From a virus (taxonomy: Duplodnaviria; Caudoviricetes): a DNA stretch of 64,000 bases. Below, in pieces: positions 20,031 to 25,402 of the stretch. The notes under the pieces were generated by a model. It had not been told where the DNA came from. It saw nothing but the letters and a program-made list of their open reading frames with translations, and did not search any database. Within the stretch, counting starts at the first letter, position 1; each line of letters starts with the position of its first letter. The DNA is taken from the IMG/VR virus record IMGVR_UViG_3300050034_000334; one strand, given 5' to 3'. The translations under genes were made by a program, and so were the position numbers.

Positions 20031-20420
20031 TTAGTGCTTTGAGTCTACTTCTTCACTGACAGTAGCCACGTTAAACGTCACTTTGCGCGGCTTACCTTTT
20101 GGCCCTTTTCTGTCCATGCCGCAAATGAGGATGACCACCTGTGGATTGGACTTCATAACTTCGTAGTCCTTCCCAATTACCCAGTTGCCGTCGCATCCTC
20201 CTGCCCATCCTGTAAGGTCGCTCAGGGTATAACGCAGGTTGCCTATCGTGCCTTCGATAAACTGCATTCCAAAAGCTGTGTGGTAAGTCTTCTCGGCATC
20301 GGTGGCTTTGTGGATAGAACTGACATGCAATATCGCAGGAGCAGTTTCAGGCTGTTGAGCTGATGTGACCAAGGAGGTCAAAACGAGTGAGATAGCACCA
20401 AACAGAAATCGAATTTTCAT
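20031..20420 (-). CDS. Secreted hypothetical protein
   Basis: N-terminal signal peptide. Confidence 0.6.
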   Translation of the reverse strand: MKIRFLFGAISLVLTSLVTSAQQPETAPAILHVSSIHKATDAEKTYHTAFGMQFIEGTIGNLRYTLSDLTGWAGGCDGNWVIGKDYEVMKSNPQVVILICGMDRKGPKGKPRKVTFNVATVSEEVDSKH

Positions 20421-20457
20421 TTCCTGACTTCCTGTATCAGAGGTAGAGGCACGTCCT

Positions 20458-21249
20458 GTGATACAACTTTGTGAATATGGATGCGGTCAGATTGCCAAAT
20501 TCGTTACCAAGAACGGTCGACATCTCTGTGCGAATCCAAACGCTTGTCCTGCGAAGAAAACCAAGGTTGACAGAACCAATCTTCAGAGGTACGGGGTTCG
20601 ATTCCCCAACCAGTCCTCTACGGTGCTTGAAAGAGGAAAGGTTACTTCTCTTCTCAAGTATGGAGTTGAACATCCATTCCAGTCCGAACAGGTGCAACAA
20701 ACAGCAGCCAATACCAACATGAAGAAATACGGAGTTGCTAACGTCTTCGCTTCCAAGTCAGTCCAGGATAAGATCAAAACAACTAACCTAGAGAGACGTG
20801 GAGTTGCAAATCCAAGCCAGGATCCGTTCGTAGAAAAGAAGAGGACAGACACCATGTTCAGAAAGTATGGTGTCAAATACATCATGCAGCATCCCATGTA
20901 CTACCGCATAAGTCGAAAGAATGCATTGAAAGTTCAGCCTATCGAGGTAGATGGTAAACTCTTCACTGTTCACTCCAAAGAAGAGGGTAAGGTGCTGGTG
21001 GAACTCGTTGCCTCAGGATTCCGAGCCAGCGAACTTGAGACCGATCCTTCTAGGATGCCTCCCATTCTCTATACCAATCCAGAGACAGATAAGACATCCA
21101 GATATTTCCCTGACATTTTCGTGCCTCGCCTCAACTGGCTGATCGAAGTGAAGTGTAACTACACATTCACCAACAACAAAGAACTAAACTTGGCGAAGCG
21201 CAAGGCTTGCAAAGACCTGGGATTTCAGTACAACTTCATCATTCGTTAG
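20458..21249 (+). CDS. Putative free-standing homing endonuclease (xxKYGV repeats plus PD-(D/E)xK domain)
   Basis: Repeated TNxxKYGV units; YFPDIF...LIEVK; inserted antisense in a minus-strand operon. Confidence 0.7.
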   Translation: MIQLCEYGCGQIAKFVTKNGRHLCANPNACPAKKTKVDRTNLQRYGVRFPNQSSTVLERGKVTSLLKYGVEHPFQSEQVQQTAANTNMKKYGVANVFASKSVQDKIKTTNLERRGVANPSQDPFVEKKRTDTMFRKYGVKYIMQHPMYYRISRKNALKVQPIEVDGKLFTVHSKEEGKVLVELVASGFRASELETDPSRMPPILYTNPETDKTSRYFPDIFVPRLNWLIEVKCNYTFTNNKELNLAKRKACKDLGFQYNFIIR

Positions 21250-21282
21250 TCGACAACGTCCTCTAGTCGACAACGTCCTCTA
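21247..21282. repeat. Tandem 17-bp duplication TAGTCGACAACGTCCTC x2
   Basis: Duplicates the last codons (EDVVD-stop) of the ligase C-half at the endonuclease 3' end. Confidence 0.85.
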
Positions 21283-22300
21283 CTTCAAACACCGGAGTCG
21301 TCGCTTCATAAGAGATGTTGTGCTTCAAGAAAGTGGCACGAACCCAATCCTCGCCAACAGTCCTGACACCGTGCTTCGCAGCATCCTTTTGCTTGTTTGC
21401 GCCGGGAGCATTTCCAATAATGAGGACGTTGGTTTTCTTGCTGACACCGCTCTTCTTTGTAGCTCCAAGACTTTCCAGCTTCTTCTCAACCATTTCACGA
21501 GGCTGAGCTAGATCGCCGGTGATGCAGAAGGTCATCCCGTCCAGCGGCATTCCTGTCGTGTCGCGAACCATCTGGCTCTTGGGGCGGACACCCGCGTCGA
21601 ACAGATTCTTCACCAGATCCTTGTTGCCCTGATCGGAAGCCCAGGTGGTCAATGATGCCATCTTGCGTGGTCCAAACCCCTCAGTCCCCGCTGGAAGAGC
21701 AAGGAACTTGTCGCAAAGGGTTTCCATTGCATCGGCGTCAAGTTTCAGGACGTTCGCGAGAGTCTTGCCTAACGAGTGCCCGATCATCGGGATGCCCAGG
21801 GCGGCGATCCAACGATTCCAACCAGCGTTCTTTGCGGTCTGTACTGACTTGGCCATCTTCACCACGGCCACACCGGAAGTGAACCCGATCTTGTTGTGGA
21901 GGTTGGCAGCAACCTTGTCATCGCCATGCTTCTGGATGCTAGCGAAAACGTCATCCGCGAAGCAGACCAGGTCGGACATGTTGCGAACGTATCCTCTGGA
22001 CACCAGCTGGTCGGCCAACTCCGGTCCCAGTGCGTCGATTTCAAGAGTCTCGCGATCCGCGACCGCATACAGGTGATGGGCCAGGGTGCCGGGGCAAGAG
22101 GAGTTGCCGCATTCATGGGTTACGACCTTGGCATCGCTCTCGCTTTCGATTACCGCATGACCGCAGTCAGGGCAAACTGTAGGAGGCAGGATCTCGATTA
22201 ACTGAGACCTCTTGGCGGCATCGCGATGACCATCAATCGGACAATCTGAGCTAAAGTTGTCTTCTTTTCCAAATCCTCGATCGCAAGTGCACTCAATCAT
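21263..22300 (-). CDS. ligA: NAD-dependent DNA ligase, C-terminal piece (Zn finger, HhH, BRCT)
   Basis: CPDCG...CGNSSC, EIDALGP, ALGIPMIG, FCITGDL...SGVSKKTNVLIIG. Confidence 0.9.
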   Translation of the reverse strand: MIECTCDRGFGKEDNFSSDCPIDGHRDAAKRSQLIEILPPTVCPDCGHAVIESESDAKVVTHECGNSSCPGTLAHHLYAVADRETLEIDALGPELADQLVSRGYVRNMSDLVCFADDVFASIQKHGDDKVAANLHNKIGFTSGVAVVKMAKSVQTAKNAGWNRWIAALGIPMIGHSLGKTLANVLKLDADAMETLCDKFLALPAGTEGFGPRKMASLTTWASDQGNKDLVKNLFDAGVRPKSQMVRDTTGMPLDGMTFCITGDLAQPREMVEKKLESLGATKKSGVSKKTNVLIIGNAPGANKQKDAAKHGVRTVGEDWVRATFLKHNISYEATTPVFEVEDVVD

Positions 22301-22318
22301 TTTTCCCTTTCTTATTCT

Positions 22319-22347
22319 CTCTACGTCTAAATTTGCTAATTCGGTTA
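22319..22347 (-). promoter_or_regulatory. Phage promoter TAACCG-N17-GTAGAG for the ligase C-terminal piece
   Basis: Exact motif followed by AGAAAGGG RBS and ATG 22300. Confidence 0.8.
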
Positions 22348-22387
22348 AGATTTGACTTCCTATTCCTATGGTGAGGAGACGATTGGG

Positions 22388-23332
22388 ATGGGAAAGACCT
22401 GGAAGTGGAGCAAGCCAGAGGAGTACGTGGGAAATGACTTGTGTAACTATGGATGTGAACAGCTAGCTCATTGGAAGATGAAGAACGGAAGATTGTGTTG
22501 TAGTTCTCACAATTCTCAGTGTCCGATTGTTCGACATAACCGGCCTCAATCTCAGATGATGAAGAGTACTGAGGGGCAAAAGAAGCTACAAGATCAGAGG
22601 ATGATGAAAACAGGATTTGCAACTCCCTTTGAAGACCCTGCTTTTCTGAGTAGGTGTAATAGGATTGCTCATGACCGATATGGGGTTGAGAACGTGTTTC
22701 AAGCTGATGCAGTGAAGGCAAAAAGTAGAAGTACACTCGTACAACGCTATGGGAAATCAAACATCTCTCAAGTGTCTGGTATTCAAGAGAAGAAAAATGC
22801 TTCTTGCTTGAAGAACTACGGGGTCTTAAATCCTCAGCAGTCTCCAGAAGTAAAGCAAAAGGTACAGGCCACCTGTCTAAAAAGGTATGGGGTTCCTCAT
22901 CCGTTGCAAAACCTGGACATAGCTCGAAAGGTTCTAAACCATGGTTTCCAGAGAACGACCTACTACTTGCCGTCTGGGAAGTCAGTCGTTTTGTCAGGAT
23001 ACGAGCCATTTGTCCTAGATGAACTTCTGCTTCAAGGTTTCTCTGAAAGAGATTTCGATTTTGAACTCAATCTACCTGAAATTCGTTACTTGGCTTCTGA
23101 TGGCAAGATGAGAAGATACTATCCTGACTTTTACATTCCACGTCTCAACTGGATCATTGAAGTGAAGAGTATCTACACGTATTTCAAGGAAAGAAGGGAT
23201 GTCCTGGCAAAGATGAAGGCATGCAAAGATTTGGGATATGCCTACAACCTGCTCATTCGGGTAATCCATCCAAAACTCGTGTTACAACAGGTATTACGTC
23301 ACCCGAACGGATCACTTCGATCCGGCTGTTGA
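22388..23332 (+). CDS. Putative homing endonuclease (paralog of 20458-21249) splitting ligA
   Basis: xxxYGV repeats; YYPDFYIPRLNWIIEVK; antisense within ligA. Confidence 0.75.
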   Translation: MGKTWKWSKPEEYVGNDLCNYGCEQLAHWKMKNGRLCCSSHNSQCPIVRHNRPQSQMMKSTEGQKKLQDQRMMKTGFATPFEDPAFLSRCNRIAHDRYGVENVFQADAVKAKSRSTLVQRYGKSNISQVSGIQEKKNASCLKNYGVLNPQQSPEVKQKVQATCLKRYGVPHPLQNLDIARKVLNHGFQRTTYYLPSGKSVVLSGYEPFVLDELLLQGFSERDFDFELNLPEIRYLASDGKMRRYYPDFYIPRLNWIIEVKSIYTYFKERRDVLAKMKACKDLGYAYNLLIRVIHPKLVLQQVLRHPNGSLRSGC

Positions 23333-24872
23333 TCTTTAAGCCCAGATTTCGGATCCAGGTGATGTTGTTCAAGTTGACCCTTGTTATTGTAGCTCCAGCC
23401 AGTACAATGGGGTCTACAATTCCTACGGGAGTCAGCTTTCCGGTTCTTCCATTTGACCAAATCACTTCTCTCAAGTGAGTGATTCCTTTGGCGTTCTGCG
23501 GCTTGAAGCAGACCTGATAGTTGGTGGTGTTCGAACTCACACCCAGGCTGGAGCGAAGCTGGTGGCTATCCACCTTGATGACCACGCCGTCGGCGATGAT
23601 GTCGCTCTTCTCGTTTGCGGCCAGGATTTCGTCAACCTTTGGGATCACAAACGATTCACTGAAGACAACCTGACCCTCATACTTTGCAAATCCATAATTG
23701 AAGAGCATGAGCATCCGGCGATAGGAGGAATCGGGGAGTGATACATCCTGCTCGGGAGAGTAGGCATCCCAGGGGATGAACTGAATGTCGCGGCTGGCCA
23801 CAACGCTCAGGTCCTTCTGCTTCATGGTGCCGGCAGTAAGGTTGCGTGTGGACATGTAAGGCTTGCCACCCTTGGCAATCACTTCCGCATTGATGCGGTC
23901 GAGTTCGGTCTTGGACATGACCAGTTCGCCACGGACGTGAAGGTTGTCCACTTCCGGCTGGTTCATGTACGCTTCGATAACCTTGAGAGTAGATGGGACA
24001 TTCTTCAGTGCGCGGACCTGAGCGGTCATATCTTCGCCAGAGTCGCCATCGCCACGAGTCAGGGCCATCGTGAGTTCCAAAGGCTGACCGGGTGCGCTCA
24101 TGTGATAGCGAAGTTCGCAGCTGATGCCGTCGCGCTTGGGCTCGATAAGAGCCGTGAATCCGCCGGTGCACTTGTCGATGAAGAACTTGCGGATCTCATC
24201 CTTGGTGTAGAAGTTCTCGATGCTGAGCATCGGACGAACGTGAGCAACGCGACCGCTTGTGCTCTTCGTATCACCCACAACCTTGAGGATGGGAGCGTTT
24301 GGATCGAGTGCCTTGAGTTCGGCTTCTTTGGAATCGTACTCGGCATCCGTCATGGTGGGATTGCCAGTGTAATAAGCATCCCGTGCTTTGACGAGTAGAT
24401 CGTTAAGGTCTTGTGCTAAGCTCATAGTATTCTCTACCTCAAAAGTTGGAGGATCGGTTACTCCGGCGGTAATAACTGCTTCGACGGAAACTACTGGAGT
24501 GCCATCAGGATACTGATGTGGTTGTCTTCTTGTCCAAACATAATCCGAAGTGAAGAAGTAATCTTCATCCTCTAATTTGTCTAGCTCGCCGGCAATTTTC
24601 TCACCAAGAGCAGAAGGCTTTTCAGGAGGCAAGTGGTGACCTGACATTGGGCCAAGAGTTTCTGTCTCAACAGGACTGTAAGAGACTTCCCCAGCACACA
24701 CATTCACCAGCTGGGCATTCGTCTCCGATGTGGTGATTGCGGCTTCCACTTCCGCGAATGGGACCATCACGATCACTTCTGGGTTCTGGAGAACTTTCTC
24801 AGCATGTTGAGTTACGATCTGCTCGTTGGTTTCAGCAGAAGAGGTATTGGGGACAAACTTGACTTTGGTCAT
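23253..24872 (-). CDS. ligA: NAD-dependent DNA ligase, N-terminal piece (adenylation plus OB); likely true start 24425 (MSLAQ)
   Basis: DAYY...TDAEYD, EPKRDG, RGDG..GED, VRGE, DGVVIK, GDVIP; leaderless promoter at 24432-24460. Confidence 0.9.
   Translation of the reverse strand: MTKVKFVPNTSSAETNEQIVTQHAEKVLQNPEVIVMVPFAEVEAAITTSETNAQLVNVCAGEVSYSPVETETLGPMSGHHLPPEKPSALGEKIAGELDKLEDEDYFFTSDYVWTRRQPHQYPDGTPVVSVEAVITAGVTDPPTFEVENTMSLAQDLNDLLVKARDAYYTGNPTMTDAEYDSKEAELKALDPNAPILKVVGDTKSTSGRVAHVRPMLSIENFYTKDEIRKFFIDKCTGGFTALIEPKRDGISCELRYHMSAPGQPLELTMALTRGDGDSGEDMTAQVRALKNVPSTLKVIEAYMNQPEVDNLHVRGELVMSKTELDRINAEVIAKGGKPYMSTRNLTAGTMKQKDLSVVASRDIQFIPWDAYSPEQDVSLPDSSYRRMLMLFNYGFAKYEGQVVFSESFVIPKVDEILAANEKSDIIADGVVIKVDSHQLRSSLGVSSNTTNYQVCFKPQNAKGITHLREVIWSNGRTGKLTPVGIVDPIVLAGATITRVNLNNITWIRNLGLKINSRIEVIRSGDVIPVVTRVLDGLPE
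24432..24460 (-). promoter_or_regulatory. Phage promoter TAACCG-N17-GTAGAG; leaderless ligA N-piece
   Basis: Exact motif, ATG 6 nt downstream at 24425. Confidence 0.8.
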
Positions 24873-25153
24873 CGTCTCCCTCTCGTGATCGAGTCTCTTC
24901 GATACTGCCCTTCTGGCACCGCACCATTCTCGATTCCGACTGACATTATCTCCTCATCGCTGAGAAGTTTCAGGATGATTCCCAACTTGTCATCGAACTT
25001 GATGGCGATGTTGTTTCCTGCCATCTGTTCAATCTCTTTGGGCGATATTGTGATGTCCTTGACGCCCATCTTCATCATCAGCAGAGCGCAGACCTTGTGC
25101 CAGTGATCATGCACTCCCTTGGTGGTGGGATGTTCAGGATTCATTTCCAACAT
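24869..25153 (-). CDS. Hypothetical protein
   Basis: ORF track, GGAG RBS. Confidence 0.6.
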   Translation of the reverse strand: MLEMNPEHPTTKGVHDHWHKVCALLMMKMGVKDITISPKEIEQMAGNNIAIKFDDKLGIILKLLSDEEIMSVGIENGAVPEGQYRRDSITRGRR

Positions 25154-25162
25154 GGTCTACTC

Positions 25163-25402
25163 CTACTTGGGATTCTTCCACCCAGGTTGACTTCTGATCT
25201 CGAGGATTTCTTCGATGGTGAGCGTGTTGGCCTCCAACCTTTCAATCCAGCCCTTTTGGGCACAATAGGCACGGTTGAAAGCATCCCTCTTCTTAAAGAA
25301 CTCCAGCATCTCAGGATCACCAAATACCTGAAATCCGGTTGAAAGGACAACATTGGTACGCTCGAAGCTGGTAGAACCAGGTTCAGCGTCGTGAATATCC
25401 AC
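25163..25402 (-). CDS. Hypothetical protein
   Basis: ORF track. Confidence 0.55.
   Translation of the reverse strand: MDIHDAEPGSTSFERTNVVLSTGFQVFGDPEMLEFFKKRDAFNRAYCAQKGWIERLEANTLTIEEILEIRSQPGWKNPK

Follow-up and report, generated by a model that had tools for sequence, protein, structure and literature searches.

A jumbo-phage NAD-dependent DNA ligase gene divided at its OB-to-zinc-finger linker by a putative mobile DUF7487 endonuclease cassette

The NAD-dependent DNA ligase (LigA) is seen as a clamp formed by one polypeptide chain, which closes around nicked DNA. In the virus record IMGVR_UViG_3300050034_000334 of IMG/VR, of which a stretch of 64,000 nucleotides (hereafter the window) was analysed, its gene ligA lies on the minus strand as two open reading frames (ORFs), with a nuclease gene of the family DUF7487 between them on the opposite strand. 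This raises the question how the ligase gene came to be divided, and whether its two parts, an N-half with the domain Ia, adenylation and OB regions and a C-half with the zinc finger, HhH and BRCT regions, still serve one enzyme. A single polypeptide is not encoded, as a stop codon follows ..VLDGLPE and the C-half lies in another frame 1 kb downstream. A preliminary description, made from the letters of the window alone, had proposed a functional LigA of two polypeptides, divided by a free-standing antisense endonuclease. The three ORFs and their orientations are as claimed there, as are the end of the N-half (..VVTRVLDGLPE and stop) and the start of the C-half (MIECTC..DGHRDAAKRSQLIEILPPTVCPDCG), and the proposal itself is supported on sequence evidence, namely an undivided gene in a near-identical phage, a conversion tract, the recurrence of the split, and selection on both halves. 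The ligA linker was probably split by a mobile DUF7487 cassette that spreads via break repair, and the halves would be translated separately and most likely form a two-chain ligase.

An uninterrupted ligA in related phages, for which a comparison had been suggested, was found among peat contigs. Outside ligA, the contigs L006-L010 are 99.4-99.6% identical to the window. In L010 (about 99.5%), the junction between the OB and zinc-finger regions is uninterrupted (..VIPIITAAVTKTDQPILPPTVCPDCG / ..RSGDVIPIITAAVTKTDQPILPPTVCPDCG..) and belongs to one ORF of 623 aa, and from position 22192 the C-half DNA of the window is 98.5% identical to this intact allele. The flanking OB sequence of L010 is of another type, and no empty site with exactly the window-type flanks was found. 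Contigs L006-L009 agree with the window in N-half, antisense nuclease and C-half, and the comparison of L010 with L006, otherwise near-identical genomes, shows a whole junction made into a split one by the cassette.

The comparison of the window with L006 indicates how the cassette travels. The two sequences are about 28% divergent from 24077 to 23616, have no mismatches from 23615 to 22179, and differ by about 1.5% further into the C-half. From the background divergence of about 0.4-0.5%, about 6 mismatches would be expected in this tract of 1,437 bp, which includes OB-coding flank besides the cassette. Because it is free of mismatches, the cassette appears to have moved recently, together with 349 nt of OB flank, between ligase sequence types. 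The tract bears the signature of homing with co-conversion, or of recombination at a break made by the nuclease, which suggests that the cassette is mobile. The same mosaic is present in a contig from an RNA library (X15 record 3), and the breakpoints of the mosaic lie in the OB region.

The insert has a G+C content of 42-46%, compared with 52-59% in the ligase halves, and is interlocked with the ligase gene at both ends. The conserved part of the nuclease ends at 23260 (..NLLIR), after which its frame runs for 23 codons antisense into the RSGDVIP region of the ligase; the stop codon of the N-half sits within the last conserved codons of the nuclease (..LLIR), and the nuclease stop lies within OB codons of the ligase. 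The nuclease ORF lacks its own stop and terminates within ligase-coding DNA. At the other end, the ATG of the C-half is preceded at 22301-22313 by a purine-rich run, AAGAAAGGGAAAA, which is Shine-Dalgarno-like and similar to the runs of neighbouring genes, and ligase sequence is reached at ..QLIEILPPTVCPDCG. Comparison with three cassette-free relatives places both the ATG and this run inside the insert, in agreement with the earlier claim that the C-half takes its start signals from there.

In the mechanism proposed here, a cassette of about 1.07 kb with an antisense PD-(D/E)XK endonuclease would have come to sit in the flexible OB-to-Zn linker, where it would supply the stop codon of the N-half and the ATG, Shine-Dalgarno-like run and 32-residue leader of the C-half. 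Between co-infecting phages it would spread by double-strand-break repair or recombination, dragging flanking ligase sequence along and turning whole alleles into split ones. The Ia-NTase-OB chain (390 aa) and the Zn-HhH-BRCT chain (345 aa) would be translated separately and would most likely assemble, probably on nicked DNA. The ligase would survive because the break falls in a flexible inter-domain linker, and two chains can still assemble on DNA.

The borders of the insert were set by three relatives without the nuclease cassette: the split L017 and L015, and the whole L010. On the left, homology with L017 stops at 23267, inside GAT G. On the right, homology resumes at 22195 in L017, at 22192 in L010 and at 22186 in L015. 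Protein similarity of the C-half to its relatives begins at Q33 (position 22204), the P0122/L015 C-half (86% identical) starts with MTTTT followed by QLIEILPP, and other C-halves start 10-15 residues ahead of CPxC. Because of the point at which homology resumes and the P0122/L015 start, the native C-half is judged to begin at about Q33 (22204) and not at A28 (22219). On these alignments the right border is placed at about 22204-22195 and the size of the insert at about 1.06-1.07 kb, with AAKRS as part of it.

The preliminary description had instead delimited the insert by two copies of GATG, read as a target-site duplication, which gave a length of 1,048 bp and a leader of 26 aa. GATG is present at 23270-23267 and 22222-22219, joining at the two copies is in frame, and the left joint agrees with the end of homology at 23267. 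The right joint at 22219 does not hold, since homology resumes only at 22195-22186 and since this joint would leave 22 residues between ..VIP and the first zinc-finger cysteine; among 85 whole homologues this spacing is 18 residues in 68, 19 in 16 and 23 in one, so that 84 of the 85 have 18 or 19. The length and leader have to be corrected to the values given above and to 32 residues, respectively. As a duplication, GATG is at chance level: the two junction stretches share four in-frame 4-mers and two 5-mers, GATGG occurs also at 22234-22230, and at least one shared in-frame 4-mer arises in 85% of shuffles. Homing via double-strand-break repair is not expected to duplicate its target. The break in the window falls 11 residues past ..VIP, in this linker of 18-19 residues. 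A further candidate for a duplicated linker segment, the N-half tail GLPE with QLIE of the C-half, was dropped, as 6 of 15 bases agree. The coordinates of the locus and the arrangements found in relatives are collected in Table 1.

Table 1. Features of the divided ligA locus in the window and arrangements of the ligase halves in relatives
Feature	Position	Strand	Description
Upstream gene (138 aa)	24426..24872	-	fused in frame with the ligase ORF; 2-nt deletion near 24461/24460
ligA N-half proper	23253..24425	-	390 aa from M150; Ia, adenylation, OB; ends ..RSGDVIPVVTRVLDGLPE and stop
Second-insert site	24077..24196	-	uninterrupted in the window; occupied in L006-L010 and L017
Mismatch-free tract, window and L006	22179..23615		1,437 bp; cassette and 349 nt of OB-coding flank
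Convergent overlap of N-half and nuclease	23253..23332		80 nt
Insert	22196..23266		about 1.07 kb; nuclease gene, 87-nt divergent spacer, C-half leader
Antisense nuclease gene, DUF7487	22388..23332	+	314 aa from ATG 22388 (326-aa ORF); intact
ligA C-half	21263..22300	-	345 aa; zinc finger, HhH, BRCT; start MIECTC..DGHRDAAKRSQLIEILPPTVCPDCG
C-half start codon and 32-codon leader (MIECTC..AAKRS)	22205..22300	-	insert-derived
C-half, native part	21263..22204	-	linker end QLIEILPP, four-Cys zinc finger, HhH, BRCT
Second DUF7487 nuclease gene	20458..21249	+	263 aa; 33% identical to the first; convergent with the C-half end
219-aa ORF between halves, L011 and L015	L011:8307-8966; L015:1371-2030		on the ligase strand
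L017	L017:3163-3176		halves overlap by 14 nt (..VHNERN-stop and MSETK..); no insert
L013			130-nt spacer between halves
L022			two small ORFs between halves
Tunturi 5			3.2 kb with eight genes, including thymidylate kinase, between halves; no nuclease

The reading of the two halves as one enzyme was assessed from their conservation. Between the window and L015, the ratio of nonsynonymous to synonymous substitution rates (dN/dS) is 0.10 for the N-half and 0.09 for the C-half, with dS about 0.87, and between L015 and L017 it is 0.14 and 0.10, respectively. Both halves are under strong purifying selection; where relaxed selection had been named beforehand as a sign against a functional ligase, dN/dS is about 0.1 in both. 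The N-half matches the Pfam families PF01653 (5e-43) and PF03120 (1e-18), and its KxDG motif reads EPKRDG. In the N-half alignment A3, residues K97, D99, G100, G166, E167, D279, G280, K284 and K308 of motifs I, III, IV and V are invariant, as are Y18, Y19, D27 and D31 of domain Ia (ORF residues 150-207; YY..D..YD), for which PF22745 matches were obtained in relatives. The C-half matches BRCT (PF00533) at 4e-12, and the zinc-finger residues C43, C46, C64 and C69 are invariant in the C-half alignment A4; the HhH region aligns with whole homologues, and the window copy gave no passing Pfam HhH match. The domain set of LigA (Ia, NTase, OB, Zn, HhH, BRCT) is complete across the two chains, and the invariance of the catalytic and zinc-finger residues across split homologues confirms the earlier observation that both halves keep their catalytic or structural motifs.

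Prediction of a complex of N-half and C-half gave 0.59, compared with 0.05 for the best control, a weak result and possibly a memory of the solved single-chain LigA. The mark applied is reached by 58 of 80 solved complexes and by 2 of 110 mismatched pairs, and at 0.60 or under the passes comprise 7 of the 80 solved complexes together with both passing mismatches. The runs had a contact agreement of at least 63% and a predicted local distance difference test (pLDDT) score of at least 79 for the partner. Because structures of whole LigA have been solved, the pass may reflect memory of the single chain.

The split is not confined to the window and its near-identical relatives. The survey covered the best 120 homologues of the N-half, with a tree of 113, and about a quarter of them (27 of 113) consist of the N-half only and end 7-13 residues past ..VIP; the commonest distance is 11, the value of the window. 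The split state requires 13 changes on the tree of 113 sequences, of which well-supported branches force 11. In all 11 lineages whose contigs reach far enough, the N-half is followed on its strand by a C-half gene. Because the gene is whole in near-identical phages and the split recurs under selection, the ligase probably works as two chains. In six lineages (the window group, the P0006 contig, L018, L020, L021 and L023) an antisense DUF7487 gene runs 62-98 nt into the end of the N-half. All three of the relatives nearest to the window nuclease (43-52% identity) occupy the ligA linker site, which points to a subfamily specialised on this linker, and in all six lineages examined the subfamily was found only there. 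Six further lineages, listed in Table 1, have their halves overlapping or separated by other sequence, and the overlap in L017 looks, from its sequence, like a healed-over split with translational coupling.

The nuclease matches PF24308 at 1e-51, with 176 bits against a curated cut-off of 27, and the PHROG families that it matches carry the label 'homing endonuclease'. In the library searched, DUF7487 has 15,524 cluster representatives at an E-value of 0.001 or below. The AlphaFold (AF2) model, with a pLDDT of 88.6 and a disordered tail (residues 295-314), begins with a small Cys-rich part, continues with five or six helical repeats in tandem (YGV..P.Q) and ends in a C-terminal alpha/beta domain. 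Residues 186-305 match TnsA (Z 8.5, root-mean-square deviation 2.8 over 103 residues), Vsr (Z 7.4) and I-Bth0305I (Z 6.5), all with moderate Z scores. A Foldseek search of the model against the PDB gave no match at an E-value of 0.001 or below, its weak rows being mostly PD-(D/E)XK nucleases, and a profile search of PDB sequences gave only a marginal phage exonuclease (E 0.06). Residues E206, D247 (P-D pair) and E258-x-K260 are invariant in 31 members. These features suggest a free-standing PD-(D/E)XK homing endonuclease, whose activity and target are predicted from the sequence and the model.

Friedrich and colleagues reportedly described in 2007 the nrdA 'genes in pieces' of Aeromonas phage Aeh1, with the endonuclease gene mobE. 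The genes-in-pieces phenomenon has been known since that year, and the ligA split adds another case. In both systems an essential gene of DNA metabolism is made into two ORFs by a free-standing endonuclease cassette without intron or intein, the gene is whole in relatives, the insert gives new ends to both polypeptides, and the halves are thought to be separate chains. In Aeh1, the products of nrdA-a and nrdA-b act as separate chains, for which the tails derived from the insert are essential (Crona et al. 2011, PMC3045599). The two systems differ in the gene (NrdA and here LigA), in the nuclease (HNH and here a PD-(D/E)XK DUF7487 protein) and in the site, which is the active-site region in Aeh1 and an inter-domain linker here. 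Unlike in Aeh1, nuclease and N-half overlap convergently by 80 nt, no pair of tails is evident, the activity of the halves is putative, and the split, found repeatedly in many lineages, is often retained where the nuclease is absent.

Several observations weigh against a working two-chain ligase that was split and is expressed as proposed. Assembly of two chains and nick sealing by them are putative. The N-half tail has only about 4 residues, and the tail-mediated assembly of Aeh1 NrdA for that reason has no obvious counterpart here. A second, whole ligase elsewhere in the genome could make the split ligA dispensable. The nearest N-half relatives of the window, L015 and L017, are split without this nuclease, so that in this lineage the split may have been made first by something other than the present nuclease. 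On the side of expression, the consensus promoter that had been reported ahead of the C-half was not recovered, as no sigma-70-like site with at least 9 of 12 matches is present on the minus strand upstream of 22300; the best candidate by eye, TTAGCA-17-AATAAG, has 8 of 12, the T at position 6 of its -10 hexamer being absent. Within the nuclease gene, the ligase strand has a weak terminator-like hairpin with a T-rich tail (22876-22864); should it be real, the C-half would depend on a promoter of its own. Both halves are covered by contigs from RNA libraries of four studies. These contigs may contain DNA and leave transcript ends and strand unreadable; the lack of such cover for several parts of the stretch in some runs is uninformative. 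As regards hairpins of this kind, the count in the scan was at chance level.

The origin of the split could also be read in another order, in which ligA had already been split in the lineage and the DUF7487 endonuclease homed later into the spacer as a passenger. This order, which would leave the two-chain reading unchanged, is possible though doubtful. It is favoured by the closest N-half relatives, split without nuclease through the 14-nt overlap of L017 and the same-strand 219-aa ORF of L015, by a common short start (of the MTT..EI.PP type) in C-halves with and without nuclease, and by the eight unrelated genes between the halves in Tunturi 5. The nuclease-free forms may, however, descend from forms that lost the nuclease. 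A late passenger also fits poorly with an N-half stop inside the conserved last codons of the nuclease, with a C-half ATG inside the insert, with a nuclease subfamily found only at the ligA linker, and with the conversion of a whole junction seen between L010 and L006. It is highly improbable that the halves are rejoined into a single-chain LigA by a group I or II intron, a split intein or ribosomal bypassing. Such rejoining is common in jumbo phages (PMC12880540; PMC2677866), and the leader of the C-half is Cys-rich. Against it, no Rfam family was matched at an E-value of 1 or below on either strand of 20200-25200, no Hint or intein domain of Pfam is present at the locus, and intein ends are missing, the N-half tail having 4 residues and the 32-residue leader being without a terminal His-Asn followed by a nucleophile. 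RNA-library contigs run unspliced across both borders (X15, 21656-22393 and 22438-23615; X16, 23176-23379), and among these contigs, which may include DNA, no joint skips the insert, so that the spliced message considered in the preliminary description did not appear. In addition, many relatives have kilobases of unrelated genes between the halves. There is thus no sign of an intron, an intein or splicing behind the split of ligA.

Selfish insertions can kill genes, and a second ligase may exist outside the window, so that the insertion might have inactivated the ligase and left the halves to decay, or one of them alone functional. This is very unlikely in view of the dN/dS of about 0.1 in both halves across a dS of about 0.9 between split alleles, the retention of all catalytic and zinc-finger residues, the co-occurrence of the halves in 11 of 11 informative lineages, and the presence of the split in a cultured phage, Tunturi 5. 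That the locus is a chimera of metagenome assembly is scarcely credible: the 2-nt difference that fuses the upstream gene to the ligase ORF could be an assembly slip, but independent assemblies from several samples and sources have this cassette with its junctions (L006-L009, P0001, P0121), and at least half of the sampled words of the stretch are present in each of fifteen runs from many studies.

The preferred reading, a linker split by a mobile cassette and a ligase working as two chains, can be set against other known systems. In domains, catalytic residues and their order, the two halves correspond to the E. coli type of LigA and to the intact phage forms L005, L010 and P0003, with 46-73% identity to whole phage homologues; unlike single-chain LigA, two polypeptides are made here, and the C-half has a 32-residue leader that is not ligase. 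Fractured genes with split inteins from environmental phage DNA (Dassa et al. 2009, PMC2677866) likewise have same-strand half-genes with a homing-endonuclease gene between them. They differ by their intein halves, and because these are lacking here, protein trans-splicing is not available. Intron-split genes have also been described in jumbo phages (PMC12880540). With the T4-type SegA-G and MobA-E endonucleases (PMC2988022; PMC10448857) the cassette shares a free-standing nuclease by or within conserved genes, co-conversion of flanks, and presence/absence polymorphism among near-identical phages, whereas DUF7487 has a TnsA/Vsr-like restriction-endonuclease fold with tandem helical repeats and lies within a gene, not between genes. 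Searches of the literature found no report of a split LigA or of DUF7487.

The source of the window is a jumbo phage of peat soil and a relative of Tunturiibacter phage Tunturi 5, which was the best match in the phage collection and is a cultured, plaque-forming 309-kb jumbo phage of Acidobacteria (PMC11924767). The sole nucleotide match in that collection was 117 bp in Tunturi 5, and a viral-contig scan with the C-half as query gave no match. Public runs containing the stretch come from peat, wetland and permafrost metagenomes. The closest cultured relative is Tunturi 5 (45% identity in the N-half, 40% in the C-half), whose ligase is divided in the same linker. Its halves are gp116 and gp108 (L004:5622-6692 and 1461-2414; PP885688); gp116 ends with ..VLDG plus one residue, and gp108 starts 7 residues ahead of the PTLCPDCG that opens the zinc finger. 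Unlike in the window, they lie 3.2 kb apart with 8 other genes between them and no nuclease. The published description of the phage (PMC11924767) does not mention a split ligase. A tblastn match runs upstream of the annotated start of gp116, and domain Ia may have been cut off by the annotation.

A natural and widespread two-chain LigA, if real, would mean that the covalent OB-to-Zn link is dispensable. As the cultured Tunturi 5 carries the split, this is directly testable, and complementation of E. coli ligA(ts) is a standard assay. The peat phages offer whole, singly split and doubly split alleles in genomes about 99.5% identical elsewhere, with the ends of the conversion tract resolved to the base pair, and DUF7487, a very large uncharacterised family, would gain its first biological context, with a target gene and site suggested by the sequences. 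A wider and tentative reading is that a heterodimeric LigA from two genes is stable and has evolved repeatedly in soil and freshwater jumbo phages, with DUF7487 as a long-term linker specialist that is anchored, donates a start, and leaves splits that never heal when it is lost. Were this so, imprecise loss of the nuclease would destroy an essential gene, because its 3' end overlaps the invariant RSGDVIP codons; the nuclease-free splits (overlapping ORFs, the 130-nt spacer, unrelated genes) would be states after invasion; and the Zn-HhH-BRCT chain could act as a DNA-binding subunit with its own regulation.

The start of the N-half is set by the relatives L015 and L006, which begin at the same Met (M150, position 24425), where the GAGG run is intact. 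The longer ORF of 539 aa (23253..24872) arises from a 2-nt deletion (24458-24462) that removes the stop of the 138-aa gene, L006 having GAGAG-TAA and the window GAG-TAA; whether true variation or a slip of assembly, the deletion falls in a GA run. In a large protein collection the relatives of the N-half have 97%, 80%, 73% and 62% identity, and at the DNA level L017 is 94% identical to the window over most of the N-half. The second DUF7487 gene, downstream of the C-half, occupies the same place in L006-L010 and is repeated after the C-half in the distant L021, so that ligA is both flanked and split by paralogous selfish genes. The 219-aa protein between the halves of L011 and L015 belongs to phrog_4652 and is conserved between these two lineages, which share only about 55% identity in their ligases; it may be a further mobile element or an accessory protein of the ligase. 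Neither this ORF nor a 218-aa ORF of L006, described below, matches a Pfam family, and the two are unrelated to each other. In Serratia phage 2050HW (L002) and Pseudomonas phage Phabio (L003), the NAD-ligase is annotated as three and two consecutive same-strand coding sequences, respectively, broken at other positions, which may be frameshifts or further splits.

In L006-L010, ligA holds a second insert, with the 218-aa ORF and an antisense GIY-YIG endonuclease gene (L006:4400-6191, L007:693-2484, L010:4744-6535), and the second insert of L017 (L017:928-2199) has a 63-aa ORF with an antisense GIY-YIG gene. Apparent decay of the selfish genes in L006 and L007 (a nuclease of 258 aa versus 314 aa, and a GIY-YIG gene 'missing' from L006) was rejected, as the DNA is identical and the differences are due to the gene caller. 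The second insert parts domain Ia and the PMLSIENFYTK segment from the KxDG motif, and the ligase of L006-L009 is hence in three pieces. Downstream of this insert the ligase is about 27% divergent from the window, an apparent second co-conversion tract, and all four combinations of the two ligA inserts are present in the population.

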